From positions 2,587-66,586 of IMG/VR virus record IMGVR_UViG_3300034127_000032: a stretch of 64,000 nucleotides of DNA. One strand, given 5' to 3'. Below the pieces are notes generated by a model. That model saw only the letters and a list, made by a program, of their open reading frames with translations, was not told where the DNA came from and ran no database searches. Below, one piece after another: positions 1,167-61,068 of this stretch (position 1 is its first letter; each line of letters opens with the position of its first letter). This stretch comes from a virus. Its lineage: Duplodnaviria; Caudoviricetes. A program made the translations under genes and the position numbers.

Positions 1167-2875
1167 GCTACTTGCTCCTCTCCCTGGTAAACAGGGCTAA
1201 GTATTTCGGGATGGCCTTTTACTTTAAACCAAATCTTCACAGACACTGGCTTTTGCAGTTCAGCTTTGCGGCCTAAAAAGTCGTCACAACTCGTCGGATA
1301 ATTTTCATTACCTGTATTCTCTTTCCACCACTTACGCGCTAGGCCTTGGGCAGAACCTTTGTGCTCAAAGCAAAGCCAAGTACTGTACGGTAGTAACCCA
1401 CAGTGGTAGACTGCACGGATGCTTGGTGGTTTCCCGGGCTTTTGATAAAGCGCGTAAGTAACCATGTCTACCGGAATATCGCGCACATCAAGAGTTTGTG
1501 GAGTGTCGTCGCCAATACCCGCAATAGCTGTTTGCTCTGAAGCTCCAGCTGTAATATCGTAGGCCGGTGGTGGGAACTTATGGCCGCAGTCTCCGCATTC
1601 AGTTACTCGGCTTGGCCATTGGCTCTGACACTTAGGACAAACTTTCATAGGCGGTGCATCGCTTCCACCCCGCTTCTTTTTCTTCTCCGGTAATATAGGC
1701 TCATTGATTGGGCCTAGCCTAATAATGTTGTTTGCAAAGTCCAATACTAAACAGCCGAGCGATTTAGGCCCTGCTGCGATAGCTGATAGTCTGCCAGCAA
1801 TGGTAGTCAAGTCAAAGCCTGGTGCGTATACTGGACGGGTGCCACGGCCAAGTATTTGAATGTGCAAGCTGTTAGACTTGGTAGGGCGCATAAGCACAAG
1901 CAAATCAATGTTAGGAAAGTCAAAGCCTGTAGTCAAAACGCCCATGTTTACCAGCGCGCGTAAACCGCCTTCTTGACGTTTAAAGTCGGCAATTACGTCT
2001 TCGCGCTTCTTGGTCATTTTAGAGTGGATAACGCCCGTGCGTATACCCATATCGTTGAGCATTTCAGCAATGTGCTCGGCGTGCTCAATTGATACTGCAA
2101 AGATCAGCCACTTTTTACGCTGTTGTGCTTTAGCTACCATCTCTAGGCAGCAATTGTACGTCACGCCGTTAAGGTCGACTGCGTTGGCCAGTTGCTTTTG
2201 GTTGTAGTCGCCTGCAATAGTCCCAACGTCAGATAGGTCAAACTGGGTATCAGTCGACTTAGTAGTCAGTGTAGCCAAATAGCCTTCACGAATAAAGCGT
2301 ATAAATACTTCACGCGTAGCAAAGTCGCAGGCCAAGTGGTTAAATAGACCGCATTCGAGTAAGTGGCCTCCCTTCATGCGCCAAGGCGTGGCGGTTAGCC
2401 CAATGCAAACAAGCTTTGGGTTCTTCTCGCGTAGCATGTCAAGCGTCTTGCCGTACAGCGTTTCGGACGCTGCCGGAATCATATGAGCTTCATCAATAAG
2501 CACAATTGAAGGCTTTTCAACTTCATGAGCAATATTGACAAACGATTGAATACCAGCCACAATAATACGGCCAGTCAAATCACGCTGTTTAAGACCTGAT
2601 GAGTATACTGAAACAGACGCACCAGGCCAAACCCATTTAATTGATTTGGCATCTTGCTCGACTAGCTCCTGACTGTGGGTCAATACTACTACGCGTCCTG
2701 TTCCTGGCCAGTTGGCGTAAATGTCGCGAATAATCATGCCCAACAAAGAAGCCTTGCCTGTACCTGTGGCCATTACAATCAACGGATTAATATGGCCACT
2801 CCGCTCTGCAAAAGCCTGCCACAGGTAGTTAACAGCCGCTTCCTGGTAAGGTCTTGGAATGAACTTACCCTTCAT
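1163..2875 (-). CDS. Superfamily 2 DEAD/DEAH-box helicase (RadD/YejH-like) with C-terminal zinc ribbon
   Basis: PRPYQ Q-motif, ATGTGKA Walker A, IDEAH, GLTATP, TGFDFP, QILGRG.R, CPKC..CGDC; start re-called at MKGKF. Confidence 0.92.
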   Translation of the reverse strand: MKGKFIPRPYQEAAVNYLWQAFAERSGHINPLIVMATGTGKASLLGMIIRDIYANWPGTGRVVVLTHSQELVEQDAKSIKWVWPGASVSVYSSGLKQRDLTGRIIVAGIQSFVNIAHEVEKPSIVLIDEAHMIPAASETLYGKTLDMLREKNPKLVCIGLTATPWRMKGGHLLECGLFNHLACDFATREVFIRFIREGYLATLTTKSTDTQFDLSDVGTIAGDYNQKQLANAVDLNGVTYNCCLEMVAKAQQRKKWLIFAVSIEHAEHIAEMLNDMGIRTGVIHSKMTKKREDVIADFKRQEGGLRALVNMGVLTTGFDFPNIDLLVLMRPTKSNSLHIQILGRGTRPVYAPGFDLTTIAGRLSAIAAGPKSLGCLVLDFANNIIRLGPINEPILPEKKKKRGGSDAPPMKVCPKCQSQWPSRVTECGDCGHKFPPPAYDITAGASEQTAIAGIGDDTPQTLDVRDIPVDMVTYALYQKPGKPPSIRAVYHCGLLPYSTWLCFEHKGSAQGLARKWWKENTGNENYPTSCDDFLGRKAELQKPVSVKIWFKVKGHPEILSPVYQGEEQVA

Positions 2876-2877
2876 GG

Positions 2878-3756
2878 TTACCCCAAAGCAATAATAATAT
2901 CCGCTGGCTTTACAAACGCCCGATGTTTGCTGTACGCGCCGCATGGATGGTACGGGTCAATGTCGTCGGAGCCATTGTAAGCACACGACCATTTACCTTC
3001 TTTATTCGGTGATGCGTGTTCGCAAGTTCGGCAGTTAACATCAACTGACTCATTAGTCAAATGCCAGCAGTTGGCGCGATGATCGCAGATACGGCAGCGA
3101 TAGTCGGTAGCCCGTAAAGCGATGCGCTCAGGCGGCTCATCAGCAAAAGCTAGCTTGTCTGCTAGTTGCAACTTCTCATCAGCAAAGGCTTCGTCGAGCA
3201 TTACCCATTCGGTGTATAGCTCATCGTTGTTCTTGTTAACAGCCATGTAAAAGCATTTAGTCAGCTTAAACTCGCGCATGTATGTTTGTACTTGTGCGTA
3301 GTGTACCGGCTTACTGATCTTTACGCCTTTTTTGCCCAAGTCTTCAAAAGACTTAAGGCTATGGGTTTTCATTTCAAGTAGCACCCATTCGTTTGGATGC
3401 TCAACAAAACCAAAAGCAAAGCCGTCAGTAGAACCACCTACATGGCCATAAGCCCGACTGGCCTTGAACTGCTTACCGGTTTCTGGGTGTACGTCTTGAA
3501 CTTTGATGCCAATTGAGTGCAAATAACCGGTGAAGCGCGGTTCTTCAAGATGGCCACGATTAAATAGCCGTAACACAAACGGTGGAAAAGACGGACGTGT
3601 TGTCCAGCGGTAGCTAAGCCAAATAGACCTGTGGCATTCGGCGCCAATACCGCTAAGCCCAAGGTGCGTGCGGAACGGAAGCTCTTTGGCTTCTAGGCTA
3701 ATTGCCTGGTGTCGAAGCTGAAAGGCTTCAATAAGCTCTTGAGTTGGCGTGCTCAT
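2878..3756 (-). CDS. Cas4-like PD-(D/E)XK exonuclease
   Basis: ECHR...RGH.EE...GSTDG...LLEMKT...QVQTYM and CxxC-x5-C, the four-Cys Fe-S pattern. Confidence 0.85.
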   Translation of the reverse strand: MSTPTQELIEAFQLRHQAISLEAKELPFRTHLGLSGIGAECHRSIWLSYRWTTRPSFPPFVLRLFNRGHLEEPRFTGYLHSIGIKVQDVHPETGKQFKASRAYGHVGGSTDGFAFGFVEHPNEWVLLEMKTHSLKSFEDLGKKGVKISKPVHYAQVQTYMREFKLTKCFYMAVNKNNDELYTEWVMLDEAFADEKLQLADKLAFADEPPERIALRATDYRCRICDHRANCWHLTNESVDVNCRTCEHASPNKEGKWSCAYNGSDDIDPYHPCGAYSKHRAFVKPADIIIALG

Positions 3757-4199
3757 CGGTCTTTAACCTCAGCGCGTAGTAAACTATTTACTGGCGATTC
3801 AGTAAGCTCGAACGCACGTTTTACCTCAGGGTTTAAAGCATCTTCAAAGTCTTTTTGAGCTTCAGGAGAAATGCCGCTTGACGCAAAAACTTCTACCGGC
3901 GTAAGCGGACCAAACGGCGCAGAAATATCTGCTTGTTCTGCGCGCAAACGGTTTACAACGTTTTGTGCGTAGCCAGCAATGTCGATCCAACTATCGTCAT
4001 AGTCAGGATCGCCGCACATAATACGGCTGATTTTGTGCATGACCATTGCGAGCGCTTCACGTTGGTCGTAAGCAAGATTTTGCCAGCCTGGAAGCGAACG
4101 TAAGTAGTCTTCGAGCTTCATGGCTACTTCGCCGCTTTCAATAAGCGGACCGTAACGGCCACGACGTTGCGCGATGGTTTGTTCGAGCTCAGTGGACAT
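3753..4199 (-). CDS. DUF6378-like all-helical protein
   Basis: R..RYG...REAL.MVMHKISRI..GDPDYDDSWIDIAGYA. Confidence 0.7.
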   Translation of the reverse strand: MSTELEQTIAQRRGRYGPLIESGEVAMKLEDYLRSLPGWQNLAYDQREALAMVMHKISRIMCGDPDYDDSWIDIAGYAQNVVNRLRAEQADISAPFGPLTPVEVFASSGISPEAQKDFEDALNPEVKRAFELTESPVNSLLRAEVKDR

Positions 4200-4203: not shown

Positions 4204-4695
4204 TTACTCCCGGTTAAGTTCTGCTTCAGTTATTAAGTGTGCGCGTTGTACAGTCGGCAAATCCATCCAGCCGTAATGCGTTTGCTGCAGAGGCAAGCCA
4301 AGTTTATCCGCTAGCCACTTGTAGGCGCTAGCTCGAATCATACGCCTAGCTGCCATCATAGCATGAAAAGATTGTTTTGCATGTTGCCGTGCAGCTCTTA
4401 GCTCTTTATTTGCCAATGTGCCAAGCGGAATAGCCGTATCAGCATGTACGCCTACATGAGCTTCACAGCTTCCTGCACAAGCGTACAAAAATGGCCAATC
4501 GCCAACGCTTCTGCCATAGATAGTTTCGTTATTTACGAGTATGACACTACCTTGGCAGTAGGGACATGCCGTAGGGATGGGCAACGCGTCACGCACTCGT
4601 TTCATTGCTGTAACACTTACGTAAGGCAGACCTTCTGGCGGAGGAATAACCCACGTCTGTGGGTTTGGCTGTGGCGTAAAGTTAATCTCAGACAT
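4204..4695 (-). CDS. DUF3268-family zinc-finger protein
   Basis: CPYC...YGR...LYAC...C.AHVGVH...PLGTLAN.ELR.AR...AYKWLA..LG. Confidence 0.8.
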   Translation of the reverse strand: MSEINFTPQPNPQTWVIPPPEGLPYVSVTAMKRVRDALPIPTACPYCQGSVILVNNETIYGRSVGDWPFLYACAGSCEAHVGVHADTAIPLGTLANKELRAARQHAKQSFHAMMAARRMIRASAYKWLADKLGLPLQQTHYGWMDLPTVQRAHLITEAELNRE

Positions 4696-4907: not shown

Positions 4908-5313
4908 TGTATTGTACCTTTATACCATGTGAGATTAAATGTTTAATTGCGGCTTGTTGCGCCTCAGCCCAACGTCCTGGGTTACCCACAGGTGGCATTA
5001 CTACCTCGCTGACTCGCTTGCTTGCGACTATTGCTGCTGCGCATGCTAAGCACGGCTGGCTAGTAACAAATAACGTTAAGCTAGAACCTTCAGAGTTTTG
5101 TAGCGCATTGACTTCCGCGTGAATAACCATAAACGTTGAGCTTTCATTATTCAGTGTAGCATCATTATACTCTGGTGGAGGACCGTTGTAACCTGCTCCG
5201 TTAAGTTTTCTTTCGCTAGTTACTACAACTGCGCCTACTTTGCGCTCTTGCTTTGACCATTCGCCGACTTGGCCGGCTAGCTGCATAAAGCGGTCACGCC
5301 ATTTTTGTTCCAT
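4900..5313 (-). CDS. dCMP deaminase
   Basis: KVGAVVV...GYNGPP...HAEVNAL...PCLACA zinc-deaminase motifs. Confidence 0.88.
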   Translation of the reverse strand: MEQKWRDRFMQLAGQVGEWSKQERKVGAVVVTSERKLNGAGYNGPPPEYNDATLNNESSTFMVIHAEVNALQNSEGSSLTLFVTSQPCLACAAAIVASKRVSEVVMPPVGNPGRWAEAQQAAIKHLISHGIKVQYNG

Positions 5314-6131: not shown

Positions 6132-6208
6132 TGGTGGGCCGGACAGGACTTGAACCTGCGACCGATCGATTATGAGTCGACTGCTCTAACCAACTGAGCT
6201 ACGGGCCC
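6132..6208 (-). tRNA. tRNA with CAU anticodon, probably tRNA-Ile2 (lysidine type, reads AUA)
   Basis: GGGCCCGTAGCTCAGTTGGTTAGAGCAGTCGACTCATAATCGATCGGTCGCAGGTTCAAGTCCTGTCCGGCCCACCA folds as a cloverleaf with encoded CCA; C4-G69, C5-G68, C29-G41 as in Ile2. Confidence 0.92.
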
Positions 6209-6214: not shown

Positions 6215-6928
6215 TTAAATCGCATGGCCCATCTTAGCAAACAGATGGGTCAGACTTGGATATTCGAGTTCGTCAAGGACGCCTGAACGGTCCTTGCACT
6301 GATACTGCCAGTTTGCTTTTGTCCGCAGCTGGCGAGCGCCGTTATTAGCAATTTCCAGCGCAAATACTTCGTCTAGCAGATAAGGCATGCCAGACTGCAG
6401 CATTTTACCGGGAAATTTCATGCCAATTTGAGTGGTACCCATTACATCGTCAGTTACTTTTTCCGCTTTGCACAAAAACACTATATGGTGATGCGTTGGT
6501 AAGTCGCGGAATGCGCGCACCAGGCCAAGAACGTCTTGCCCAAGAATGCCGTATGCTTGACGCGGATCTTTTACTGTGGGGTTTGCCAAAGCTTCAGTCA
6601 AAACTGTTTCCGCAGTGTCAGACAATGAGTCAAGAATAACTGTCTTGTATTGTAGTGCTGCAGGAGTTTGCAACCAAGCGTAAATTTCTTTAAGCTTGGC
6701 GACCGTAGAAACATCAATATACGGAACGTTGTACGTAACCCAGTCTTGGTCAGCGCCATACACTTTGGCAATGTTATCCGGGCTAAGCGATAACAGACCG
6801 CGTTCAGCGTTCAATAAAAGCGGCGCTGGAGCAGACGCTGCAATCATAGTCTTGCCGTTACCGCTAAGGCCGTAAATGGCCATTCGAATTGGTCCGGGCG
6901 GTGTAGCACCTGTAAGTTTCACTTCCAT
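6215..6928 (-). CDS. AAA_24 / Sak4-like ATPase (recombinase)
   Basis: IYGLSGNGKT Walker A, VILDSLS Walker B, KDRSG near the C-terminus; beside the SSB and exonuclease genes. Confidence 0.85.
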   Translation of the reverse strand: MEVKLTGATPPGPIRMAIYGLSGNGKTMIAASAPAPLLLNAERGLLSLSPDNIAKVYGADQDWVTYNVPYIDVSTVAKLKEIYAWLQTPAALQYKTVILDSLSDTAETVLTEALANPTVKDPRQAYGILGQDVLGLVRAFRDLPTHHHIVFLCKAEKVTDDVMGTTQIGMKFPGKMLQSGMPYLLDEVFALEIANNGARQLRTKANWQYQCKDRSGVLDELEYPSLTHLFAKMGHAI

Positions 6929-7030
6929 TATCTTGTCTCTCAGTTCATTTAGCTATTATATTGCGCTGCTTAAGGCTTGTACAACTTTATTTAAAATAAA
7001 CGTTCCCAGCAGTGCGCAACTGGGCTATAA

Positions 7031-7417
7031 TCAGTCGGTTTCAACTTCCGGCGCTTTTGTTATCTTAACTTGCGGGGTCCCCGGCGAAGTAGTAATAGCT
7101 TCAAGAGCTGCTTCAAGGTCGTCGCCTGTCAGTGTTTTAAGACCTGTTGCGCTGACGGTATAGCTGACTTTGAAGACACCGGCAAATTTTTCTTCGCCAA
7201 GCTTTTCTCGTGCGTCTGCCAACGACGGCTCAAACACTTTGACGTTTTCAGTATTTGTGAACGACACTTTATAGCCGTCCATCTCAACGGTCTTTGAGCC
7301 TTTCTTTGTATGGTTAGACCGAGCAAGTAGCTCAAGCCGTGCGTTAAGCTCAAGCTCTTTAATCTGCTCAAGCGATTTTTTAATGGCTTCCCACTTTGGA
7401 ACAGTCATTCCGCTCAT
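7031..7417 (-). CDS. Hypothetical protein of the recombination module
   Basis: ORF in operon; ends ITTSPGTPQVKI. Confidence 0.6.
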   Translation of the reverse strand: MSGMTVPKWEAIKKSLEQIKELELNARLELLARSNHTKKGSKTVEMDGYKVSFTNTENVKVFEPSLADAREKLGEEKFAGVFKVSYTVSATGLKTLTGDDLEAALEAITTSPGTPQVKITKAPEVETD

Positions 7418-7421
7418 TGCT

Positions 7422-7850
7422 TTACTCCCGGCGTAACAGCATTATTAAAGCGTCTGAACTGCCTTTGACACGAATGTCAGGTAGGATTGTTTGAGGCTTG
7501 AATTCGACGCGGTAGTGATAAACGCTTACGTCAGCGCCGTATAGCTGCTCGCTAAAATAAGTCACATTGTCTGACAGACCAAGCGAATGCTTTTTATATT
7601 CTTTGGGCCCAACTTTGCAGGTAACGTCCAGCTTACGCGCGCTACTTGCGTCAAAGGCACAACGGCCTTCAATAGACAGCATATAGCCACCAGTGATTCC
7701 GTTGTAGAAAACGATGCGCCGTGTAATTTCAAAGTTGTCGGCTGCAGCAGACAGGTTGCGTGAAGCAATATCCGCGTCGCGGCCACAACCGGAAAGTACA
7801 CTTGCAGAAAGGGTTAGTAAGCCAAGCGTTTTAAGCAGTTTGATTTTCAT
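7422..7850 (-). CDS. Conserved phage lipoprotein
   Basis: Signal peptide with lipobox LSGC; AS.NLS.AADNFEITRRIVFYNGITG. Confidence 0.75.
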   Translation of the reverse strand: MKIKLLKTLGLLTLSASVLSGCGRDADIASRNLSAAADNFEITRRIVFYNGITGGYMLSIEGRCAFDASSARKLDVTCKVGPKEYKKHSLGLSDNVTYFSEQLYGADVSVYHYRVEFKPQTILPDIRVKGSSDALIMLLRRE

Positions 7851-7920: not shown

Positions 7921-10446
7921 TTACTCTTCATTTGACTGTTGAACTATATAAACTTGTGTATTAGCTGGAAGCGCAGAGGCAGTAATACCCAGCGGAATAC
8001 CGCCCGGAGTTCGTAGTTCAATAATGCCTTGACCGACCAAGCTCTTAAGTGCCTCGTCTCGGCCTTGAGTACTAATCTCCGCACGGCTTAGCCCAAAGAA
8101 GCGTGCAGTATACTGGCTAAATAAACCAACTGTCAATATGCGCGCTTGAATGTCTTTGTCCAACGTCGTAGATAGTCGGCTAGCTTTACGCAGCATTTCT
8201 CGCACAGCTTCTAAGTCTGTGCCTTCAGTGTAAAACTTAATAATGGCCAACTCGTAGCGTGACGCTTGGTTGACGGTGTTCATTGCATGCTTGGCTTGAT
8301 GAGTAGTTGTGTCAACAGTTCGCGCAATGCTTTTGAACAGTATTTGCGCATTTTGCTTGACAAACTCCATGACAGCAATGCCCCATTCAAGGGACTCAAC
8401 GGTATGGCTTGCGCTTTCCGGTTCTTCAGACCACGCGTAAATAGCAGACAAATACTGCGCATAGGTAATATAGCGGTTAAACGCGTCTTCCTCTGCGTCT
8501 CCACCATCACCCTTACTTGCTGTTCCAAGTTCCAGTAGTCTTCTTACCAACGGTACGTTGGAACGCAGCAATTCCTGAGAATGCAGTACGGTAACAGCAG
8601 GCGAAGTAGTATAGCGACGAACTAAATTTGTTGCTTCCGATAAGTCTATTTGGACTTCGCCGTCTGGAACTTCAAACTTACCGTTCCAGCTGTTTGCGTC
8701 AATGGCTGGTTCATTACTTACCCACAGTATTAACCGAGCTAGCAGCCCGTCACCAAGATGCTGCATCAATACTGGCTTCATTGCTTTGATTGTGGATAAA
8801 TAAGCAAGCTGAACAACATAGTCTTGCAGGTCAACGCGACCGCTATTTGTGTTCTTGTCTGCAGAAGTTGTTGCGCCTGGAGCGCAGACGTTTTCAGTAA
8901 ACTCTTTGAGGAAAGCCTTTGCCCCACCTGGGTCGTTAGACGTGGCAAAGTTGGCTTCTGCCTCATCGACTAGGCCAATAGCCGCAGCTTGTTTTTCAAA
9001 CAGTGAGATACTGGCCGCAAGTTTGTTTGCGCCTTGAAGGCCTTTGCCCATATCCCGAACTGGGGTAAGCGGCAACGCGCCCATTGAGCCTTCAGCTTGT
9101 AAAGTTTGGGATACTAGCCTTGCAAAGTCACGGATACGTCGATATGCGCGTGACTTACCACGACCTGAGTTTGCCAGCGTAAAAAAGTGAACAATAGGTC
9201 GCTTGCAAATGGCGTCAGTAATGATAGACTTACCGGTACTCAAATAAACAGCTTGACATAACAACCGATCGCCAGCAAGCATACGCGTCAGCTGAATAAC
9301 CGACGGTGTAGATACGTCGAAAGCAACTTCACTGACGCGGTTTAATGCTGCAGCCAATACGCGCATGTTCTTAGGTAAAGGCGGTGGTTCTAAGAGCACG
9401 ACTGACTCAATGGTAGGAGGAGGTAGCATAGCCACAACCTCTTGGCCCATCGACAAGCTGAACGTAACCATTGGCAGTTCGAGTGAATTGTTCTTGACCA
9501 TGTTGTTGTAGTGCAGGTCAAACAATGAAACCAAGTCAGTCACTTTACGCTGACGCTTTGGCTTTGTGATGTTTGCTTCGTCTGCGCACGGGAAAGACAA
9601 GAATACGCGCTGCATTTGCTCAGCGTCAGACGAGTAACGCGATAGCCGTTGGACAAACACGCGCATGACGTCAGAGTTAAGCTGTTGCTGTGGGTCTTTG
9701 GCGTAAGCTACAGCTTCTGCGTCTTCTTTAAACTTTTCCAGCAGATATGCGTCAGCTACTTCTTCACCAACAAAGCCATGACGCAAATTAGCTTGTGCTC
9801 GTAACTCAGCGTTTTCCCGGGACTTTGCGGAGATTACTTCTTCAAAGTATGGAGTCAACGGCAGAATATCTGGCCAAGCTGGATTCGCACGGCCAGTCAT
9901 GTAAAGGAAAGTACCAGCGCCACGTGCGTCAATGCCGTCTACTACCTTGGCAATAACACCGGCCACTTCTGCTGGGCAGCTAAAGACTTGGTGTAGGCCG
10001 TTACCTCGGCTGGACATTTCTGTCCAAGTTTCGTTGGCTTTGCACAACGAAGTATAACCGGGGTTCGCCACCAAGTCGTCGTAGTCGAGTACAATAAAGC
10101 CGGGCTGAATAAGCCAGATATGGCCCATCGCAGTGGCTTTAGGATATTCTTTTAGGTAGGCCTGAACTTTGACAGAAAGCGGGTGCTTTGACATCGACGC
10201 AATGGCAGCAGTTGCTACGTCGTAATTAACCAAAGTTTCTGGTCGGCTAACGTCAGGCGCTCGGCCAGTCATGTGAACTTGTTTCTTGTAGGCTTGGCCA
10301 TCTTCATCGATAGCCAATTGCCAAACTCCCCAGACCGGAGAGTCGTCAATCATACACTGTGGGTAAGATGCCACGTTTAAGGTCATATAGTAAATCGCCG
10401 AAAGAAAGGGTTGCCAGCTGGTCGTGCTGGGATTACTAATCCACAA
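7921..10446 (-). CDS. Primase (AEP/prim-pol) fused to a P-loop helicase-like domain; start uncertain (10446 or 10386)
   Basis: IVLDYDD and TEMSSRGNGLH AEP motifs; ANSGRGKS and LVDEAE Walker-like motifs. Confidence 0.75.
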   Translation of the reverse strand: MWISNPSTTSWQPFLSAIYYMTLNVASYPQCMIDDSPVWGVWQLAIDEDGQAYKKQVHMTGRAPDVSRPETLVNYDVATAAIASMSKHPLSVKVQAYLKEYPKATAMGHIWLIQPGFIVLDYDDLVANPGYTSLCKANETWTEMSSRGNGLHQVFSCPAEVAGVIAKVVDGIDARGAGTFLYMTGRANPAWPDILPLTPYFEEVISAKSRENAELRAQANLRHGFVGEEVADAYLLEKFKEDAEAVAYAKDPQQQLNSDVMRVFVQRLSRYSSDAEQMQRVFLSFPCADEANITKPKRQRKVTDLVSLFDLHYNNMVKNNSLELPMVTFSLSMGQEVVAMLPPPTIESVVLLEPPPLPKNMRVLAAALNRVSEVAFDVSTPSVIQLTRMLAGDRLLCQAVYLSTGKSIITDAICKRPIVHFFTLANSGRGKSRAYRRIRDFARLVSQTLQAEGSMGALPLTPVRDMGKGLQGANKLAASISLFEKQAAAIGLVDEAEANFATSNDPGGAKAFLKEFTENVCAPGATTSADKNTNSGRVDLQDYVVQLAYLSTIKAMKPVLMQHLGDGLLARLILWVSNEPAIDANSWNGKFEVPDGEVQIDLSEATNLVRRYTTSPAVTVLHSQELLRSNVPLVRRLLELGTASKGDGGDAEEDAFNRYITYAQYLSAIYAWSEEPESASHTVESLEWGIAVMEFVKQNAQILFKSIARTVDTTTHQAKHAMNTVNQASRYELAIIKFYTEGTDLEAVREMLRKASRLSTTLDKDIQARILTVGLFSQYTARFFGLSRAEISTQGRDEALKSLVGQGIIELRTPGGIPLGITASALPANTQVYIVQQSNEE

Positions 10447-11323: not shown

Positions 11324-11352
11324 GCTTATTACCTGCGGTGATTAATGAACAA

Positions 11353-11381
11353 ATCATAAACCCTTTCTAGATTTTTGTAAA
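11353..11381 (-). promoter_or_regulatory. sigma70-type leftward promoter
   Basis: TTTACA-17-TATGAT, overlapped by a direct repeat AACCCTTTC. Confidence 0.65.
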
Positions 11382-11489
11382 CCCTTTCGCGCGCTGTATA
11401 GAAGGATGGTAACCCACAGTGGTAGGCCATGAGGCTTGAGGGATGAAACAGCTTACTTTATACCCTCTTATGTTACTTTATAACTACTA

Positions 11490-12310
11490 GATGCAAATGC
11501 TCGCATCGATGCGCATCAGGCTATCCGCTCGTTTCTGCAGAGATTGATTTGGTCTAGCTAGCAGCCAACGCTGCTTCGAGCTGATGCATCTTGCTTTAGA
11601 ATATTAGCCTGATGCGAGCTGATGCGGATTTTGCATCTGTTTTGCATCAGGTAAAGCGCATAAAAGCTATTAGGCAGATTAATTAGGACGGATAGCTTGG
11701 ACGAGTGACTTTAACCTTTAAAATACAGCTTTCTGCTTTATGGATTTGCATCCGCTGACTCTTGCATCAGGCCTCGCATCTGTCTAAGTCCTTGTTTTAT
11801 AAGGCTTTTTAAGCTCCTGATGCAAAGATGCGCATCAGGTAGGGTGCCGTATATTTGCTAAGGTGTATAGGTCCATATAGGCCTGTCTATATATTTTTAA
11901 TTTTTAAAAAATATATACAGCTATAGGCTATTGGTAGTAAGTAGGCAGACAAGTAGAGACTTACACACTAGCTGGTAACGGCTAGGGCTAGGGCCGCATC
12001 CGCCTAGGCCATCCGCATCTGCATCAGGTCGCATCACCTGCGTAGAGCTAAACGCACATAATTTAAACAAAAGGCAATAAAATCAAGCACTTAGGCTCCG
12101 TGCATCACAGATGCAAACCAGATGCATCTGGTGCGTTAGGCTACGCAATAAAAAGTGTACTTCGCCCAGCATTTGCTATATGATGCGAGAGTTACGATGA
12201 TTTGCATCAGCTAAAATTCGAGCAAATCTGACCGAAACAGTCTAAGGAGCCGCATCGGTGACCACTGTGGGTATTTAGTAAATAAAGATTTACTAAATAA
12301 GTTTTGCATC
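11490..12310. repeat. GCATC/GATGC iteron-like cluster with a central AT-rich palindrome; candidate replication origin
   Basis: About 28 GCATC/GATGC by hand count in about 820 non-coding bp; TATATATTTTT..AAAAAATATATA at 11888-11917. Confidence 0.7.
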
Positions 12311-12317
12311 ATATAAT
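12289..12317 (+). promoter_or_regulatory. sigma70-type rightward promoter with an overlapping 12-bp inverted repeat
   Basis: TTTACT-17-TATAAT; TATTTAGTAAAT-aaag-ATTTACTAAATA at 12272-12299. Confidence 0.75.
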
Positions 12318-12345
12318 TTAAATGTCTTAGATAGGAAATAAATAA

Positions 12346-13639: not shown

Positions 13640-13693
13640 GCTAATAGCAGGACCCGCAGTGTTAAGCCACTGTGGGTTATCAGCAAATAAAAG

Positions 13694-15241: not shown

Positions 15242-15619
15242 ATGAAAGTCTACGCAATCCGTCACACTCCAACCGGCCTGTTTATGCCTGTGCCCACAGG
15301 TAAGAACGGTAGTGGCTCATCCTACTGGGAGCCAGTTGATGGTCACTACTCTCAAATCAATAAAACACCGGTTGACGGTGTAATTGTTTATGGTACGCCG
15401 CTACCACGCCTGTTTACGTACCGTCGATCGGCAAGTTCAGCCTTAACGCAATGGTTACGTGGTCGGCATGTTCCAATAACCAGCGGTTGTTCTCCATGCG
15501 TGGCTAATGGCTTTACTTACGACGATGAGTTAATCCGGGTAGATATTGTGCCAGTGCCTGAGCGCAAAGCTGACGACATGGAAATTGTTGCGTTTGAACT
15601 TGTGGAGGTAGGCAAATGA
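15242..15619 (+). CDS. Hypothetical protein
   Basis: AAGGA RBS, in operon. Confidence 0.65.
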   Translation: MKVYAIRHTPTGLFMPVPTGKNGSGSSYWEPVDGHYSQINKTPVDGVIVYGTPLPRLFTYRRSASSALTQWLRGRHVPITSGCSPCVANGFTYDDELIRVDIVPVPERKADDMEIVAFELVEVGK

Positions 15620-46561: not shown

Positions 46562-46608
46562 CCCTCAAGCCCACAGGTGACCTGTGGGCAACTTAAGGTG
46601 AAAGCAAT

Positions 46609-48626: not shown

Positions 48627-49021
48627 AAGAAGTTTATGTGCCCACAGGCGATGGTAAAACTGTTCTTACTTTTAACGTGCATAAGTTTAGCCCGCTGGAT
48701 GGCCGAAAGATTCTCGCTTACTACCCGCTATCAATCTTGAATAAAGAGCATACTTATAATAGCAACGAAGCTGCTATGCGTAAGCTAATGGCTTATTGCT
48801 CGGTGGGTAAAGAAGAAGAAGAGCAAGTCCACCTTGTGGACGATGCGCTAATTAACGAGCATGTGCCAGACTGGTGGACGTTGGTGCAGCTCGAATATGC
48901 TTGCCTGAAGTATAACTGTTCTTTTCTTGAAGGTACAGACTTACTTGCAGTTGCAAAAGCGAGCATGACAAATGCCCTCAAAGGACTTGTTGCAGACCAC
49001 TTGGAGCGCCTTAGCAAATGA
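48623..49021 (+). CDS. Tail assembly chaperone-like protein 2
   Basis: KFSPLDGRKI...LINEHVPDWWTL..LE...YNCSFL. Confidence 0.65.
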   Translation: MKEVYVPTGDGKTVLTFNVHKFSPLDGRKILAYYPLSILNKEHTYNSNEAAMRKLMAYCSVGKEEEEQVHLVDDALINEHVPDWWTLVQLEYACLKYNCSFLEGTDLLAVAKASMTNALKGLVADHLERLSK

Positions 49022-50513: not shown

Positions 50514-50864
50514 ATGCTAATTGAACTTAACAGCAAACAATTTCGCTTGACTAAATTTCCGCCAATAGTAGGCCGTCGTCTCATGACAAAAGGCGTTGGT
50601 GTGCATGGAATTTTTTCAAGAAGCGTAGAAAGCTGGCTGCCTATTTTTGAGTTTGTTGAGGTAGGTCTTGGCCAAGACCAATGGATACCACTATCCACAA
50701 TAACAATGCTAAATAACCACGTGCCTAGCACTTTTCAGGCTGAGTTATTGACAGCTGTTTTACAGTTCAACTGTAGCGAAATCGATGGGCTAGTTAGCGG
50801 CCCCACAGTGAACGACGCACTGTGGGCAGAAGTGTACGACGCTGTAGCGGAGGCTTTTAAATAA
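50514..50864 (+). CDS. Tail assembly chaperone-like protein 3
   Basis: FRLTKFPPIVGRRL...WIPL...NNHVP...FNCS. Confidence 0.55.
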   Translation: MLIELNSKQFRLTKFPPIVGRRLMTKGVGVHGIFSRSVESWLPIFEFVEVGLGQDQWIPLSTITMLNNHVPSTFQAELLTAVLQFNCSEIDGLVSGPTVNDALWAEVYDAVAEAFK

Positions 50865-52813
50865 TGGGCGTTTTAAACACTTTTTTTCTTCGCTACCGTG
50901 CGGATACAGGTCAAGCCGTAAAGGATATTGAAAAACTTTCTACAGCCGAACAAAAAGAGGCAAAAGTACATAAGACAAATGCTGAACAGCGAAAAAAAGA
51001 TTCTGCCATCACGCAGGAGACCATGAAAAAAACCACCGAGTCTTCTAAAAAGCTAGGTGAAAGCTTAACGCAGTTAAGCGAAGGCGGCACTAATAAGCTG
51101 GGTGCCCTCAGAGCAGCTTCTAGCACTTTTTCAGAAGCTCTTGGCTCAATAGGCGCGTCTGGCGCTATTGCGGCTGTTGGCATTGGCGCAGTTGTTGCTG
51201 CTATTGCAGTAGCTAACTCAGGTATTGACGATGCGCGTATAGCCGCCAAAGAGGCAATTGAACTTGGCGAAAAAGCGTTTGACGCGCGCCTAGCCCAAGG
51301 CGAACTTATTCGTCTACAGGGCCAAGGTCGGACTCGTGGTGTTAGCGACGATACTACCTCACAGTCAGCTAAAGGCGTTTACGACCGAGTGTCTGAAATA
51401 CGAGCAGCCCAACGCCAAGCGGCTCGAGACCCAGCTTCTGCTTTTAACAACCCGCTTATTAAACAAGCCAACCTGTGGAAGAAAGCAGGTGTAGACGTTG
51501 CTGCTGGTCTTGAGAAACAAATGACTCAGCAGGATAAGTATTTACGCGGTCTTAAAGACGCTGGACAAGAAGAGCGCGCGCTAGTAGAAGGTACGCAGCT
51601 GTTCGGCCGGACACTTGCTGACGTTAAGTCTGTTCTGTCCACCACGCAAAAGCAAATGGACGAAAACGCTCTTGCAATGGCAAAAGAGTCTCAAGTCCGT
51701 AGAAGTTTACAAACATCTTCTGAAAGCTTGTCTAGCTCAGAAAATAAGCTAGAAGCAGCGCGTAAGCGTAATGACGAAAGAGTACGGCAGTACACAGTTC
51801 CAGCTACTGATGCTTTTACAAAGGCTCTTACCGAGTGGGAAACTGCTGTTGGCCCGCTAAAAGATGCGTGGGGCGAATTTGTAGCGTACCTTATAAAGGG
51901 TATGGCTGAATTGCTAGAAGGCGCAACAAGCTTCCTAAGAAAAACAGGTATTATTGACGATAATAGAACACCTGAGGCTAAAATAGAGGAACAAGTTAAG
52001 GCAAAAGTTATGCTTAACGAGGACCTTTACGGCCGTATGAAAGGCCAAATAAAACCTGGTGAAGAAGGATTTGAGGCAGCCAAAGCTGCTTTTCTTAAAG
52101 ATATTGCAGACAAAGAACGCGCGCGTCTTACCGGTCCAGCGAACGAAGCTGAGGCGGCGCGTAAAGCCGGCCTTGCTAGTACCGCAAACCAAGCGGCAAA
52201 AGACCTTGTTGCAAGCGGCAAAATGACTGAAGCAGAGGCAGCCGCAGCAGCAAAAGTTGCTATTAGTCAAGGAGAAAAAGATCCTAGCGTCAGTAAGTTA
52301 GAAGACCTGAAAACCTTGATGACTGAAAGCAACGCTGCTCAAGCTGAAGAAGGTAAAGTACAAAAGGCCCAAACAGAATATACCAAAAAGATTGAGGCTA
52401 ACACAATGGCCCTTGTTAATACAGGCCTTGAGCAGGCAATGGCGCTGTGGGCTGCAAACGTTGGTAAGGGCGCTGGAGTTGGCTCAGGCTCAATGCAGGG
52501 CGAGACTCAGGCAGATTATGAAACGCGGGTTAGGGCAATGCAGCGTACCATCAACCCTAATGCTGCGACAAAAATGAGCATGGACCGCGCAGCAGTTGGC
52601 GCAATGTCTAGCCAAGCTGAACAGCTAAACAAGTCAAAAACTGCGAGCGGCGGTAATACCGACCAATCAAAAACTGTAAAAATTGATACCTTAAAGGTAG
52701 AGGTAATTAGCCAAGCGCAAGACGTAGCTGGCTTGGCACAAGACGTTGGTGTAAGTATTCGAGACGAGCTGCGCTACGCTGCAGCAGAATTTGCTAGCCC
52801 GGTGGTGAGCTAA
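50864..52813 (+). CDS. Tape measure protein
   Basis: Long, helical, Ala/Lys/Glu-rich; position; C-terminal DQSKTVKIDTLKVEV. Confidence 0.8.
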   Translation: MGVLNTFFLRYRADTGQAVKDIEKLSTAEQKEAKVHKTNAEQRKKDSAITQETMKKTTESSKKLGESLTQLSEGGTNKLGALRAASSTFSEALGSIGASGAIAAVGIGAVVAAIAVANSGIDDARIAAKEAIELGEKAFDARLAQGELIRLQGQGRTRGVSDDTTSQSAKGVYDRVSEIRAAQRQAARDPASAFNNPLIKQANLWKKAGVDVAAGLEKQMTQQDKYLRGLKDAGQEERALVEGTQLFGRTLADVKSVLSTTQKQMDENALAMAKESQVRRSLQTSSESLSSSENKLEAARKRNDERVRQYTVPATDAFTKALTEWETAVGPLKDAWGEFVAYLIKGMAELLEGATSFLRKTGIIDDNRTPEAKIEEQVKAKVMLNEDLYGRMKGQIKPGEEGFEAAKAAFLKDIADKERARLTGPANEAEAARKAGLASTANQAAKDLVASGKMTEAEAAAAAKVAISQGEKDPSVSKLEDLKTLMTESNAAQAEEGKVQKAQTEYTKKIEANTMALVNTGLEQAMALWAANVGKGAGVGSGSMQGETQADYETRVRAMQRTINPNAATKMSMDRAAVGAMSSQAEQLNKSKTASGGNTDQSKTVKIDTLKVEVISQAQDVAGLAQDVGVSIRDELRYAAAEFASPVVS

Positions 52814-53778
52814 TGGCCAATACAATGTATGTAGCTGATTTGCTGAACAAAGTAGACCAGCGCCGTTTGAGCCTTAGGATAGGCTCAGACACAATTGTGG
52901 AAGAGTTTACTGAGGAATTCTATATAACTTGTCGCACAAAGAAAAATGTGCTATCAGTACAGAACCAGTGTTCAATTTCTATTGATAACCTAACAGCAGA
53001 ACGCCGTAATTTTTTACTAGGCTATTTTACGCAGTGGGAAAGCCGCAACTACAGCCAACCGTTTATTCCAGTTGATGTGCGCATTGGCCGAGAAAGCACC
53101 GAAAGCCAACTAACAACTATTTTTCGTGGGGCCATACTTGAGACCAGTCTAGGCAATCCGCCAGACATTACGCTTGGTCTTAAGTGTATCACAAGTTTAA
53201 TTGACATGAATATAGCTAGTACAGGCTTTGTGTCCAATACGCTACCAAAGGTATCTACCCACAGGGAGTTGTGTCAGTGGGCAGCAGACTTGGTTAATAT
53301 GCCTTTGCGATATGAGGTCACAATACCTTTGCCTGCAGTATCTGCAAGTGCTCATGCAACTATTATTCAAAAGGCTTATAGCTTAACAGCAGTTGTAGGT
53401 ATGCTAGCAAACTTTCATAAAGATAAAGTTTGTGTGTTTGTTGACGATGGTGTTTTGATTGTTACCGAATGGGGCAAAGCATTACAGGGAGAAGTTGTAG
53501 AAGTTAGTGCAGCTAACTGGCTGATTGGTATTCCTACCATTACGCAGTGGGGCGTTCAGTTTACCACTTTAGCTGACGCGCCTATCCGGCTAGCAGGCGC
53601 AGTTAACCTTATTTCTGAGCTTAACCCGTCAGTCAACCAGCCTTGGGTAATGACACAAGTTGAATACGATATAACTTCACGCGACACCAGCTGGTATGCA
53701 ACTTGGTCAGGCTCGCCTAGTGCTGCAGCTCCGTCTGCTACTGAGCCAGTAGTTTACGAGGAGCTCAACATATGGTAA
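52813..53778 (+). CDS. Baseplate hub protein
   Basis: NQCSISIDNLT...TIFRGAI.....GNPPDI.L...IGIP..T..GV. Confidence 0.75.
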   Translation: MANTMYVADLLNKVDQRRLSLRIGSDTIVEEFTEEFYITCRTKKNVLSVQNQCSISIDNLTAERRNFLLGYFTQWESRNYSQPFIPVDVRIGRESTESQLTTIFRGAILETSLGNPPDITLGLKCITSLIDMNIASTGFVSNTLPKVSTHRELCQWAADLVNMPLRYEVTIPLPAVSASAHATIIQKAYSLTAVVGMLANFHKDKVCVFVDDGVLIVTEWGKALQGEVVEVSAANWLIGIPTITQWGVQFTTLADAPIRLAGAVNLISELNPSVNQPWVMTQVEYDITSRDTSWYATWSGSPSAAAPSATEPVVYEELNIW

Positions 53779-53804: not shown

Positions 53805-55016
53805 ATGCCGTATAACTATATCACCTCGACAGGCGTAATTGTCCCTGATACCAGTACGCTAAAAACCGATGTTCAAGGCGAGTATACAGGGCAGTTTGGC
53901 GCTGCTTTGTTGCTTGCTGACGATACTCCTCAGGGCCGATTGATAGATGTTGAAGTCACTGCACGCGACTTAGTTATACGGGGTGCGGCTGAACTTTCTA
54001 ACCAGTTTAATCCAAACATAAACTCCGGCATTTTTCTTAAAAGTGTTGCTGCGTTACACGCAGTAGAGGCTTCTGCCGCTTCCTACACCGTTATTCCGGG
54101 CGTAGTAGTTACTGCTTTGCCTTCAACTGTTATTCCTGCTGGCTCGCGTATTGCAGACACAGCTGGCAACTATTTTAAAGCTATCACGCGCATAACAGTT
54201 CCTGTAGAAGGCACTGTAACGGCCGACTTTCAGGCAACCGAACCAGGCCCGGCTGTTCCGGCCTTAAATAGCGCGACTCAAATTATTGACGGTGTGTTTG
54301 GGTGGCTGACTGTAAATAACCCGTTAGTCGCTACTCCAGGTTCTTTTGAGGAAACTGATGATGTGCTTCGTCTTGCGCGTAACTCAAAGCTTTCCCTACT
54401 TTCTAAAGGCCCTATTGAAGCAATATTTTCAAACCTGCTAGCAGCGCCCAACGTAAGATGGTGTAGTGTCAGAGAAAATGATTCCGATACTGCACAGACT
54501 ATTGACGGCGTAGTAATGACGCCGTCTAGCACTTGGATTTGTGTCCAGGGTGGCGCTGATGACGATATTGCGCTAGCGTTTATTCGGAGCAAGCAAACAG
54601 GGAGCCCACTCACTGTGGGTACAGATAATGGTACGCCAGTGCTCTACTCTGTTGTGGATCCAATAAGCGGCCAGACTTATCCAGTTATGTTTACCCGCCC
54701 TGTTCCTGTTCCGTTTCTGCTGAGAGTTACTGTGGCAAGTGGTTCTGCCGTTGATCCGTATACAGCTATTCCGGACGCTGTTGTAACTTACGGTAACGGG
54801 CTGCTAGCAGGCGAACTTGGCTTTGTAGTTGGCGCTACTGTTAGTCCTTTTGAAGTAGCAGCAGCCATTAACGTTCAACTACCAGAACTTTTTATAAAAA
54901 GAGTTGAGTTAGCCCTTCCTGGTGGTACGCCTATATACACTACCAACGAGTTGTCTATCGCTCTTTGGGAAGTAGCTACCACAACTACTGGTACCATTTC
55001 TGTTGTGGTGGTGTAA
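53805..55016 (+). CDS. Baseplate J-like wedge protein
   Basis: TGVIVPDT...TPQGRLID...FNPN...ETD..LR..R...V.END. Confidence 0.88.
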   Translation: MPYNYITSTGVIVPDTSTLKTDVQGEYTGQFGAALLLADDTPQGRLIDVEVTARDLVIRGAAELSNQFNPNINSGIFLKSVAALHAVEASAASYTVIPGVVVTALPSTVIPAGSRIADTAGNYFKAITRITVPVEGTVTADFQATEPGPAVPALNSATQIIDGVFGWLTVNNPLVATPGSFEETDDVLRLARNSKLSLLSKGPIEAIFSNLLAAPNVRWCSVRENDSDTAQTIDGVVMTPSSTWICVQGGADDDIALAFIRSKQTGSPLTVGTDNGTPVLYSVVDPISGQTYPVMFTRPVPVPFLLRVTVASGSAVDPYTAIPDAVVTYGNGLLAGELGFVVGATVSPFEVAAAINVQLPELFIKRVELALPGGTPIYTTNELSIALWEVATTTTGTISVVVV

Positions 55017-59154: not shown

Positions 59155-59445
59155 CTACACCGCCTTGCCAGCAGCTTTAAGGGTTGCGTAGCGGTCAGCA
59201 GACACCCAGCCTTTATTTTCTAACGAGCGTAGATACTGACCGTTATAGAAAAACATAAGGTAAGGCCACACCACCAATATGCCAAAGCCCGCGGTAAAAA
59301 AGATAATTGCAAAGGCAATAATAGCAGTTGCCATATCACCACGGCACATTGGTACAAAAAGGCCAAAGAACAGGCTTGTCCAGCTGAACCCTGTGGGTAC
59401 GTATTCATCGCGACCGGAAGTTGGATTAATCATCTTGATAGTCAT
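59155..59445 (-). CDS. DUF2628-like membrane protein
   Basis: PTGFSWTSLFFGLFVP..RGD...FFYN..Y...L..KGW. Confidence 0.7.
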   Translation of the reverse strand: MTIKMINPTSGRDEYVPTGFSWTSLFFGLFVPMCRGDMATAIIAFAIIFFTAGFGILVVWPYLMFFYNGQYLRSLENKGWVSADRYATLKAAGKAV

Positions 59446-59912
59446 TTTGCTTTAGCCTCATTCTCTGCTCGAATTTTATCCAAAAACTCCTGAGGAAGTT
59501 TCTTAGGGTATTCAGTTGTAATATTAAAGTATTCCGCAATTTTTTCTACTGCGTCAACCCAGCTATAGCAAACAAAAGCTTGATAGCCGCGGGCTACCAT
59601 AGCTTTGCCAAATTTCTTTTGTACCGTTGAAACAACGCCGCCTGGCTTTTTCATCTCAATCCATAACCCGTTAAAGTTGTAACGAGGGTACGGCACAAAC
59701 AGGTCAAACACTCCAGGAGTAACGCCTTCGGCTTTAAGCTTGCCTGCAGTTATTTTATCACGACTGCCGCCGTTTGGTACAGCAAATATCCATTCAAGTT
59801 CTGGATGGTAATGAGTCTTACGGCGTAGCCAGCAGAACAGTGCAGCTTGATGAGCGTGCTCGGTTCCAGCACGAGCAATTTGCTCTGGCGTGTAAGAAGA
59901 GGATACGGCCAT
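59442..59912 (-). CDS. VRR-NUC domain nuclease (resolvase-like)
   Basis: EHAHQ...FAVPNGG.R...KLKAEGV.PGV.DL...IEMK...Q. Confidence 0.9.
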   Translation of the reverse strand: MAVSSSYTPEQIARAGTEHAHQAALFCWLRRKTHYHPELEWIFAVPNGGSRDKITAGKLKAEGVTPGVFDLFVPYPRYNFNGLWIEMKKPGGVVSTVQKKFGKAMVARGYQAFVCYSWVDAVEKIAEYFNITTEYPKKLPQEFLDKIRAENEAKAK

Positions 59913-59914
59913 AT

Positions 59915-60103
59915 TTACTCCGGCAAGTTAAGGGCTTGGACGGCAAGGCGCTCAAGGTGCGCTGCTTCGCCTTGAAAATGGTCTTCAGTATAGGCTATTG
60001 ACTGGCCGTTAACTACCCGTTGTTGGTTAGCCGCTTCCATACCTTTTACGCGTGCAACTGCGGCCTGAATGTAGGCAAAAGTTGCTAGCTGTTGATTATT
60101 CAT
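59915..60103 (-). CDS. Hypothetical protein
   Basis: GM.AANQQR...GQSIAY.EDHF; TAATG coupling. Confidence 0.6.
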   Translation of the reverse strand: MNNQQLATFAYIQAAVARVKGMEAANQQRVVNGQSIAYTEDHFQGEAAHLERLAVQALNLPE

Positions 60104-61068
60104 TATTCCTCCGGGAATTCAAGCGTAGCTGGTTGTTTGGTCAGCTTTTCATCAGCCCACAGTGGATGGTCCCGGCCGAGGTCTTCATTATGGCGAAAGC
60201 CTGCCCAAATGCCGTGACGTGGTTTGCTCTTTACCCCGTGTGCAAAGTGCTTAAAGCGGGTAATGTCGCCTCGAGTTTCTTCACGATTTTCCCATGCCCA
60301 CTTGGCTTGCGCATGAGTCATTGATCCGCAGCTAACACCAAACGTACCTTCATAGTCTGGGTGGTAGCAAATGTACGAGCCCAACCGGCCGGAAGCTACA
60401 AGGTTTTCAGCGTGTGAAGAACGGACGTCACGCCCAAGCTCGTTGACGTAAGTTTCGTTTTCATTGTGCATTAGTTCTTCAAAGCCGACAATACGTGCTT
60501 CACCATGACTAAAGCGTTTGACTTTAAGAAGACCGCCTTCGTTGGTTGTTGATCGGCCCATTTTGTAAAGACCGTCAAAAGACCGGACCATAATGCCTTC
60601 GTAACCCTGCTCAATGCACTGGGCTTCAAAGGCGTCAAGTTCTTCTTGGCTGCGCATTACCCGTTGAGTCAGAACGACAACATGCACATTGTCAGAATGA
60701 ATGGACGATAAACGGTCGGAGTAGCCAACGCCTTTTAGGTCCCAACGGTCAAATACGTACAGCTTAACATCCGGTATGCCTTTTTTAGACATGACACCAG
60801 AAGACGTTTTCTGCATACAGTTTGGATCAGTGGGAGAACCTACTACCAGTTCACCATCAAGGCCTTCGCAGTCAGCAAAGCGGGCTTGAGTATGGCTATT
60901 TGGAATCAGTTTAAGTGTACGTGACAGCAAACCGCCTCTTGTGCCGAGTGCTCGAATGCCATCAATCTTAGGCGACGCATAACACGGAAATTTTTGTTTA
61001 GCTGGGTCAAACTTGCCAGCAAGATTTGGCTTAAGACCTGCGGGAGGCGGTACGTTGAACAAGTCCAT
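60103..61068 (-). CDS. lig: ATP-dependent DNA ligase
   Basis: SPKIDGIRA (KxDG), LDGEL, YVFD, EGIMVR, LLKVKR. Confidence 0.93.
   Translation of the reverse strand: MDLFNVPPPAGLKPNLAGKFDPAKQKFPCYASPKIDGIRALGTRGGLLSRTLKLIPNSHTQARFADCEGLDGELVVGSPTDPNCMQKTSSGVMSKKGIPDVKLYVFDRWDLKGVGYSDRLSSIHSDNVHVVVLTQRVMRSQEELDAFEAQCIEQGYEGIMVRSFDGLYKMGRSTTNEGGLLKVKRFSHGEARIVGFEELMHNENETYVNELGRDVRSSHAENLVASGRLGSYICYHPDYEGTFGVSCGSMTHAQAKWAWENREETRGDITRFKHFAHGVKSKPRHGIWAGFRHNEDLGRDHPLWADEKLTKQPATLEFPEE

Follow-up and report, generated by a model that had tools for sequence, protein, structure and literature searches.

An over-represented heptamer in one regular array per strand of a tailed phage genome: candidate priming sites for an NrS-1/pRN1-type primase-polymerase

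The words recognised by known primases are short and frequent, and genomes need not supply them. For the NrS-1 polymerase the most efficiently primed template words are 5'-GTGG and GTGA, with most primers begun at the base immediately 5' of them, and an 8-nt site was described for it too (PMC8718748). ORF904 of pRN1 strictly requires 5'-GTG and starts one base 5' of this word, which is not copied (cryptic), while the base on its 3' side also matters (PMC2034472). The T7 gp4 sites 5'-GGGTC, TGGTC and GTGTC are short template words that fix the starts of lagging-strand primers (PMC2910064, PMC12839067). Here we describe a 64,000-nucleotide stretch of a tailed virus (Caudoviricetes), the window, which spans bases 2587-66586 of the 66,586-bp IMG/VR record IMGVR_UViG_3300034127_000032; the record has a 127-bp terminal repeat. 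Its genome carries the heptamer CTGTGGG in two independent arrays, one per strand, each regularly spaced. This anatomy is undescribed in the literature searched, and a search on the word itself and on spaced priming sites in phages found nothing relevant. By analogy with the enzymes above, we see about an even chance that the heptamer is the designated start signal for the phage's own putative primase-polymerase/helicase of the NrS-1/pRN1 type.

The heptamer is found in 48 exact copies in the window, 27 on the plus and 21 on the minus strand (Table 1). Its regular spacing on each strand is its strongest feature and was missing from a first-pass annotation of the same DNA. In this phage's own genome (G000) the plus strand has 29 sites with a mean gap of 2.3 kb and a gap coefficient of variation (CV) of 0.38, and the minus strand has 21 sites with a mean gap of 3.2 kb, a CV of 0.33 and a smallest gap of 1.8 kb. 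Random positions give a gap CV of ~0.95, and none of 4000 trials was as low as the two strands of G000 (P<1/4000). The related genomes G001, G003 and G004 show per-strand gap CVs of 0.45-0.57 (P<=0.002 on each strand). Evenness is weaker when the strands are pooled (gap CV ~0.7 versus 0.97 for random positions), and a rotation test revealed no coupling of the plus and minus arrays, which are independent in phase. Regularity confined to each strand, in arrays that ignore each other, argues for a strand-specific or directional reader and not for a protein that binds the duplex.

The first-pass annotation had described a genome-wide quasi-palindromic motif built on a 9-mer, which is the heptamer prefixed with CA. 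Every one of the 25 starts that it listed for the 9-mer is an exact match, the near-copies at 2673, 4985, 8721, 33512, 46570, 59391 and 61120 all hold the exact heptamer core, and 11-base palindromic copies do occur at 36308 and 38598. The signal belongs to the phage itself and spans its genome. Its over-representation is confirmed: in 100 dinucleotide-preserving shuffles the 9-mer or its complement averages 0.30 copies and never exceeds 3, against the 25 observed. The palindrome did not hold. An iterated weight matrix of 43 sites has its information almost wholly in the seven bases CTGTGGG, an asymmetric word with ~2 bits at each core position; the left arm is weak, with at most 0.3 bits beyond -2. 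Flank preferences are weaker than the core: C at -2, A at -1, T or C at +7 and A at +8 to +9. Intergenic sites, which are free of coding constraint, still favour C and A 5' of the core and T 3' of it. These flanks are thus real yet secondary to the heptamer. The 9-mer was also considered as the functional unit and set aside, given that the CA-prefixed subset alone is irregular, is concentrated on the sense strand and forms regional clusters on the majority strand; it is the heptamer that is regularly spaced.

Synonymous codons were shuffled within each gene, which keeps the proteins, the codon usage of each gene and the intergenic DNA. After shuffling, 6.2 copies of the 9-mer are left, of which 5 are intergenic and so beyond the reach of the shuffle, versus 25 observed (z 18.7). 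For the heptamer over the whole genome, 20 copies are left versus 51 observed (z 12.2). The excess is therefore a property of the DNA, since shuffles that leave the proteins intact fail to reproduce it. A codon-preserving shuffle had been named beforehand as a way to refute the motif; the enrichment of the 9-mer survives it. The partial word GTGGG without CT is 35-60% below the shuffles, a figure to be read with the fact that the shuffle fixes codon totals. The claim that the word is read in all frames needs correction: several frames are used, but 13 of the 18 sense-strand sites lie in a single one, which encodes Thr-Val-Gly. Antisense sites mostly encode Pro-Gln or Pro-Thr, and a CA prefix would demand Cys or Trp codons for the majority of the frames that antisense sites use. 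Coding, with the Thr-Val-Gly frame, thus largely explains why the CA prefix goes mostly with sense-strand sites. The Thr-Val-Gly tripeptide occurs in many unrelated proteins and may have been shaped, or exploited, by the site array.

The word is shared by a clade. A search of viral contigs with the portal protein returned four related records, in which the 9-mer is present in 19, 13, 21 and 26 copies and a control word in none. In the whole genomes G001, G003 and G004 the 8-base form of the word is the commonest 8-mer (28-44 copies) and survives synonymous shuffles with z of 11-19. Three related fragments, L022 (67% identical), L021 (40%) and L029 (~38%), were recovered via homologues of an 841-residue protein of the phage, the putative primase treated below, and have the word as a top k-mer. 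The word is the top k-mer wherever this replication module was found, in seven genomes or fragments (G000, G001, G003, G004, L021, L022 and L029) whose primases are 38-96% identical. In contrast, Pantoea phage PA1 and a PB1-like phage, which are structural relatives without a primase homologue, have only 2 and 5 heptamers.

Codon alignments allowed the conservation of individual places to be followed. In G001, 28 of 32 orthologous places still carry the heptamer, against a background of 31% for all 7-mers (P 7e-11). In G003, 11 of 30 places (37%) do so, against a background of 6.8% at 61% nucleotide identity (P 2e-6). Sites that are not retained have moved, and density is kept or raised: genomes have 50-67 sites, and both strands are populated in all relatives. 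Retention above background while density persists indicates purifying selection on single sites and on site number. The view of the first-pass annotation that it is the DNA, rather than the protein, that is under selection is backed by the shuffles and by site retention alike. The feature is real, strongly selected and clade-wide. A functionless by-product of codon usage, amino-acid composition or shared ancestry is rejected, with next to no probability left to it. The concentration of sense sites on one tripeptide and the close pairing of G000 with G001 and of G003 with G004 are what such a by-product would have in its favour. They are outweighed by shuffles that keep proteins and codon usage and remove the excess in four genomes (z 12-19), by enrichment that persists at 61% nucleotide identity with turnover of places, by 10-12 intergenic copies per genome and by the regular spacing.

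A different over-represented word was noticed in the two structural relatives. Pantoea phage PA1 (L017+L018) and Pseudomonas phage pasz2 (L019+L020) have GCCGCGA as top 7-mer, with 48 and 84 copies. It is 2-3-fold over synonymous shuffles and present on both strands, yet its spacing is irregular, and it was not retained as an instance of the same phenomenon. Fragment L021 (1-22574), whose primase is 40% identical, has a second over-represented word, CGCGGCCA(C), with 14 copies in 22.5 kb, which resembles the GCCGCG-type words of PB1-like phages.

Where the sites lie relative to genes bears on whether a protein reads them in duplex DNA. Such a protein could be a global regulator, a stoperator-like repressor, a promoter-proximal activator or a nucleoid organiser, and part of the distribution speaks for such a reader: sites are 2.2-fold enriched in non-coding DNA, several intergenic copies precede sigma70-like hexamers and the starts of co-oriented genes, at a distance of 20-120 nt from the latter, and the 9-mer is co-oriented with genes 53:17 across four genomes. 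However, ~80% of the sites are intragenic and half of these are antisense, the sense bias of the 9-mer is largely coding, and regularity is a property of each strand that weakens for the pooled strands. The word is not primarily a promoter element, and we hold a duplex-binding protein to be improbable. A symmetric operator in particular is unsupported, given the weak left arm and a regularity confined to each strand; the dimeric duplex-binding protein that had been proposed as reader finds an asymmetric conserved part and arrays unrelated in phase. Candidate binders named for it belong to no recognisable family, and the primase was not among them. The stoperators of cluster A mycobacteriophages, the sites of the L5 repressor, are ~30 asymmetric 13-base sites scattered through the phage genome and oriented with transcription. 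They are read as duplex by a repressor in temperate phages, are mostly intergenic and have one orientation. The present phage differs in that both strands carry arrays and neither repressor nor integrase was seen.

The candidate reader is an 841-residue protein encoded on the minus strand of the replication block and fused to a putative P-loop NTPase. It matches PHROG 3022 ('DNA primase') at 1e-15, whereas its sequence matched no solved structure and tblastn found no homologue among 50,697 records of cultured phages. An exhaustive profile search with its N-terminal 335 positions found only 15 proteins. The remote matches (E 5e-7 to 1e-3) carry PF22763, the helix-bundle domain of the NrS-1 polymerase, a link to the phage protein that is transitive, and after it bear D5-type, DUF5906, AAA_25 or DUF3987 NTPase domains. 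In an alignment of 17 sequences, remote ones included, the motifs DxD and SxxGxGxH of archaeo-eukaryotic primases (AEP) are invariant (D121, D123, E143, S145, G148, G150 and H152), and D173 is invariant in close homologues. The protein thereby has the catalytic motifs I (DxD/DxE), II (sxH) and III (acidic) of the AEP fold. Walker A (GRGKS, 428-432) and Walker B (DEAE, 494-497) are invariant in the alignment, in a part for which the whole-protein model reaches only a predicted local distance difference test score (pLDDT) of 45. That model, built from a 6-sequence alignment, was unusable, and the N-terminal 340 residues were therefore refolded with the 17 sequences.

The new model of residues 1-340 (pLDDT 81) shows strands and helices over residues 39-183 and then a set of six helices over 232-319, and places an AEP and a helix-bundle domain at residues about 23-320. 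NrS-1 N300 is its best structural match and covers both domains (residues 22-330; Foldseek E 2e-10, VIA Z 14.4, 237 aligned). It is followed by pRN1 ORF904 (residues 23-323, Z 9.8) and RepB' (Z 7.1), while unrelated chains stay at Z<4.5. As modelled, the protein has the fold of the NrS-1/pRN1 primase-polymerases, enzymes known to begin at defined template words that their helix-bundle domain reads. The domain order is that of NrS-1 gp28, with an AEP catalytic domain, a helix-bundle and a putative NTPase ring domain, at a sequence identity of ~18%. The NrS-1 enzyme differs in being also the replicative polymerase, the present phage having a separate family A polymerase. Recognition by NrS-1 is flexible, and no genome-wide even array of a long word was described there; its word GTGG is contained in the heptamer, where it is preceded by the two invariant bases CT. 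ORF904 shares with the phage protein the primase-polymerase and helix-bundle fold, and its GTG word is part of the heptamer. It differs by reading three bases, is thought to serve initiation of plasmid replication and has no arrays known. The T7 gp4 sites are likewise G-rich, with a T templating the first A (PMC2910064, PMC12839067). T7 gp4 is however a TOPRIM/zinc-finger enzyme, and its words of 3-5 bases are common by chance, with neither enrichment nor spacing needed or reported.

We infer that the 841-residue protein is the reader of the arrays and that primers start within the word. On the unwound single-stranded template, the helix-bundle domain would bind GTGGG, the last five bases of the word, after which a T is frequent. 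The catalytic domain would start the primer opposite the T just 5' of GTGGG and then copy C, giving a primer that begins A-G. Because such an enzyme would require a 7-base word, the genome would have to supply it at Okazaki-like intervals on any template strand copied discontinuously, that is, every 2-3 kb on each strand, about the size of an Okazaki fragment. Sites that prevent a long gap would be kept and redundant close copies would decay, leading to under-dispersed gaps and a regular array on each strand. The stronger proposal is that the priming map is hard-wired, with a primase of 7-9-base specificity that starts only at the heptamer and with selection acting both on the spacing of sites and on a converging pair at the origin. 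This we put a little short of an even chance.

The putative origin concerned is a non-coding block of 1 kb where gene blocks diverge. A pentamer is repeated in it 28 times, which makes up a quarter of the occurrences of this pentamer in the window. In six lineages it is flanked by two outward-pointing heptamers 590-850 bp apart. The pentamer differs by lineage, being GATGC/GCATC in G000 and G001 (28 and 23 copies) and GCAGC/CTGCA in G003 and G004 (15-18), whose blocks lie at 35052-35840 and 6734-7509, respectively, while the flanking heptamer pair is unchanged. The differing pentamers look like iterons that co-evolve with an initiator. Primers from the two flanking sites would run inward over the block and could become two leading strands; we infer that these converging primers fit the two leading strands of a bidirectional origin.

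Chi sites offer another model for a word that is read on one strand. They are asymmetric G-rich words of 5-8 bases, of which one strand is read by a moving enzyme, and they are enriched in the host chromosome. The heptamer could act in this manner as a polar signal that restrains a helicase-nuclease, either host RecBCD or the SF2 helicase of the phage together with its Cas4-domain exonuclease, so that degradation from any end would be limited to one inter-site distance. The word is G-rich and asymmetric, has 7-8 bases and is arrayed per strand like Chi, a need to avoid long gaps would yield regular spacing just as well, and the phage helicase gene adjoins the exonuclease gene. The genomes of the presumed host group do not support it. 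Among ~186,000 species genomes, exact matches to the first 32 bases (26105-26136) of a 122-aa gene (26105-26473) are limited to five, each from a fluorescens-group Pseudomonas, and short identical stretches of the same segment are also present in Pseudomonas phages phiAH14a, phCDa and PfAn1. This sequence match suggests a Pseudomonas host, despite the 47.5% G+C of the phage. In these five genomes the 8-base form occurs 190-270 times per 6-7 Mb, at or below the control word. Given the inferred host, a host word (Chi or uptake sequence) is thus rejected for lack of enrichment, and host Chi is unlikely if the host is a Pseudomonas. No phage-encoded nuclease that reads Chi is known, and the conserved pair around the origin-like block would be left unexplained. 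A Chi-like signal is therefore quite unlikely in our estimate.

Several observations weigh against the assignment of the heptamer to primer starts. To our knowledge, recognition by helix-bundle domains is relaxed and extends over 3-4 bases, and an obligate 7-base word is without precedent. The 841-residue protein has no Pfam match even at E 10, PF09250 (Prim-Pol) and PF22763 included. Both strands are fully arrayed round the whole circle, while simple bidirectional replication from a single origin needs one strand per arm, so that repriming, recombination-dependent replication or forks travelling both ways must be assumed. The word is associated with the whole syntenic replication module and not with the primase alone, and co-variation of the two is unusable because the word stays constant while the primase diverges to 38% identity. 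Lastly, the nick motif of phages tf and Rembedalsseter (TACT/RTGMC, WACTRTGAC) shares ACTGTG with the 9-mer (PMC3517423, PMC11780129).

This last point brings in programmed single-strand nicks, introduced in packaged or replicating DNA by a phage nickase that would cut inside the word and, if the analogy holds, between T and G. In tf and Rembedalsseter 9-14 nick sites are clustered on one strand, and the nicks were shown by experiment (PMC3517423, PMC11780129). The likeness lies in a 9-base clade-specific word, far above chance and found within and outside genes (PMC3517423, PMC11780129). The shared six bases, and the fact that these phages also infect Pseudomonas (PMC3517423, PMC11780129), lend the nick reading some weight. 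The phage furthermore carries its own ATP-dependent ligase and a VRR-NUC nuclease, and per-strand arrays are conceivable for a nickase, which reads one strand. Described nick systems (T5, phiKMV, tf and Rembedalsseter) have however 4-14 sites on one strand only (PMC3517423, PMC11780129), in contrast to the 50-67 sites per genome found here on both strands and more evenly spaced than random. Opposite-strand pairs 12-18 bp apart (46570/46582 and 50802/50820) would produce double-strand breaks if both were cut. A tf variant with an initial C instead of T stays un-nicked (PMC3517423), and none of the proteins scanned was recognisable as an HNH enzyme or another kind of nickase. Nicks fit worse than priming sites, and we regard them as unlikely; should the sites prove to be nicks, they would form the first nick system that is two-stranded and evenly spaced. 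A tie between the tf nicks and a primase-polymerase was also considered and rejected, the tf record annotating a primase/helicase with a DnaB-like helicase domain and not an AEP-type enzyme. We take this protein to be T7 gp4-like.

The genes of the phage, called with a self-trained caller, are laid out in three blocks: a leftward replication block that runs from ~58.8 kb across the record ends to 11.3 kb, the 1-kb non-coding block, and a rightward block (12.3-58.7 kb) with small early genes, the large terminase, the portal and structural genes. AAA_24 and DUF669 proteins are also encoded in the replication block. A small VRR-NUC nuclease gene (59442-59912) adjoins the ligase gene, its product being the sole nuclease candidate seen apart from the Cas4-domain exonuclease. 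A tRNA-Met is encoded at 6132-6208, and an RtcB RNA ligase gene lies at 16956-18221, RtcB being found in relative L021 as well. The portal protein shares 48-58% identity with its counterparts in Pantoea phage PA1, Serratia phage MTx, Burkholderia phage Maja and PB1-like Pseudomonas phages, and comparison at the DNA level found no cultured phage close to this one.

Some intergenic sites lie in potential hairpins. Two opposite-strand heptamers make up a perfect inverted repeat, 8 bp long and with a loop of 5 bases (46562-46590), between a 507-codon gene (45038-46561) and the next gene, an arrangement also found in G001; it could be an RNA hairpin made of two sites. In G003 (32640, 29815, 16442 and 34030) and G004 (9605 and 25087) intergenic heptamers are found in the loop or stem of terminator-like hairpins or just before them.

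Table 1. Heptamer sites and principal features of the window. Coordinates of sites are those of the exact heptamer; CA, CA-prefixed 9-mer form; G003/G004, site conserved in these related genomes.
Feature	Coordinates	Strand	Context or annotation
Site	1397-1403	-	sense, SF2 helicase gene; CA; G003/G004
Site	2673-2679	+	antisense, helicase gene; G003/G004
Site	4657-4663	+	antisense
Site	4985-4991	-	sense, dCMP deaminase gene
Site	6574-6580	+	antisense, AAA_24 gene
Site	8721-8727	-	sense, within primase gene
Site	9688-9694	+	antisense, within primase gene; G003/G004
Site	10357-10363	+	antisense; CA
Site	11413-11419	-	intergenic, left border of origin-like block, outward-pointing; geometry same in six lineages
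Site	12265-12271	+	intergenic, right border of origin-like block, outward-pointing
Site	13670-13676	+	intergenic; CA
Site	15293-15299	-	antisense
Site	17152-17158	+	sense, RtcB gene; CA; G003/G004
Site	17672-17678	-	antisense, RtcB gene
Site	18076-18082	+	sense; CA
Site	20663-20669	-	antisense
Site	20898-20904	+	sense; CA
Site	23893-23899	+	sense; CA
Site	24229-24235	-	antisense
Site	26781-26787	+	sense; CA
Site	27757-27763	-	antisense
Site	28902-28908	+	sense; CA
Site	30251-30257	-	antisense; CA
Site	31601-31607	+	intergenic; CA
Site	33051-33057	-	antisense, large terminase gene; CA
Site	33512-33518	+	antisense
Site	35431-35437	-	antisense, portal gene; CA; G003/G004
Site	36312-36318	+	sense, portal gene; 11-base palindromic copy
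Site	36995-37001	+	sense; CA; G003/G004
Site	38598-38604	-	antisense; 11-base palindromic copy
Site	39393-39399	+	intergenic
Site	41454-41460	-	intergenic; CA
Site	41771-41777	+	sense; CA; G003/G004
Site	44531-44537	+	sense
Site	44767-44773	-	antisense
Site	46570-46576	-	intergenic, one arm of inverted repeat
Site	46582-46588	+	intergenic, second arm of inverted repeat
Site	48092-48098	+	sense; CA; G003/G004
Site	48641-48647	-	antisense
Site	50802-50808	-	antisense; CA
Site	50820-50826	+	sense; CA; G003/G004
Site	52445-52451	+	sense; G003/G004
Site	53258-53264	-	antisense
Site	54613-54619	+	sense; CA
Site	59391-59397	+	antisense
Site	60156-60162	-	sense, ligase gene; CA
Site	61120-61126	+	intergenic
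Site	63960-63966	-	intergenic
SF2 helicase (ResIII/Helicase_C)	1163-2944	-	
Cas4-domain exonuclease	2878-3756	-	phrog_1990
Primase-polymerase, 841 aa, fused to putative P-loop NTPase	7921-10446	-	proposed reader of sites
Origin-like non-coding block, 1 kb	11324-12345		pentamer repeats
ATP-dependent DNA ligase	60103-61068	-	PF01068; would seal fragment junctions
Family A DNA polymerase	62187-63917	-	PF00476

If the heptamers are priming sites, the boundaries of Okazaki fragments, and possibly restarts of the leading strand, would be genetically fixed rather than stochastic, and the phage would offer a natural case where each Okazaki start can be predicted. It would also mean that the helix-bundle domains of AEP primases could read words far beyond the three or four bases known, and that replication priming can shape coding sequence genome-wide. 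The proposal offers a specific enzyme-site pair that can be tested, and a per-strand regular array of an over-represented word provides a simple signature for finding such systems in other viruses.

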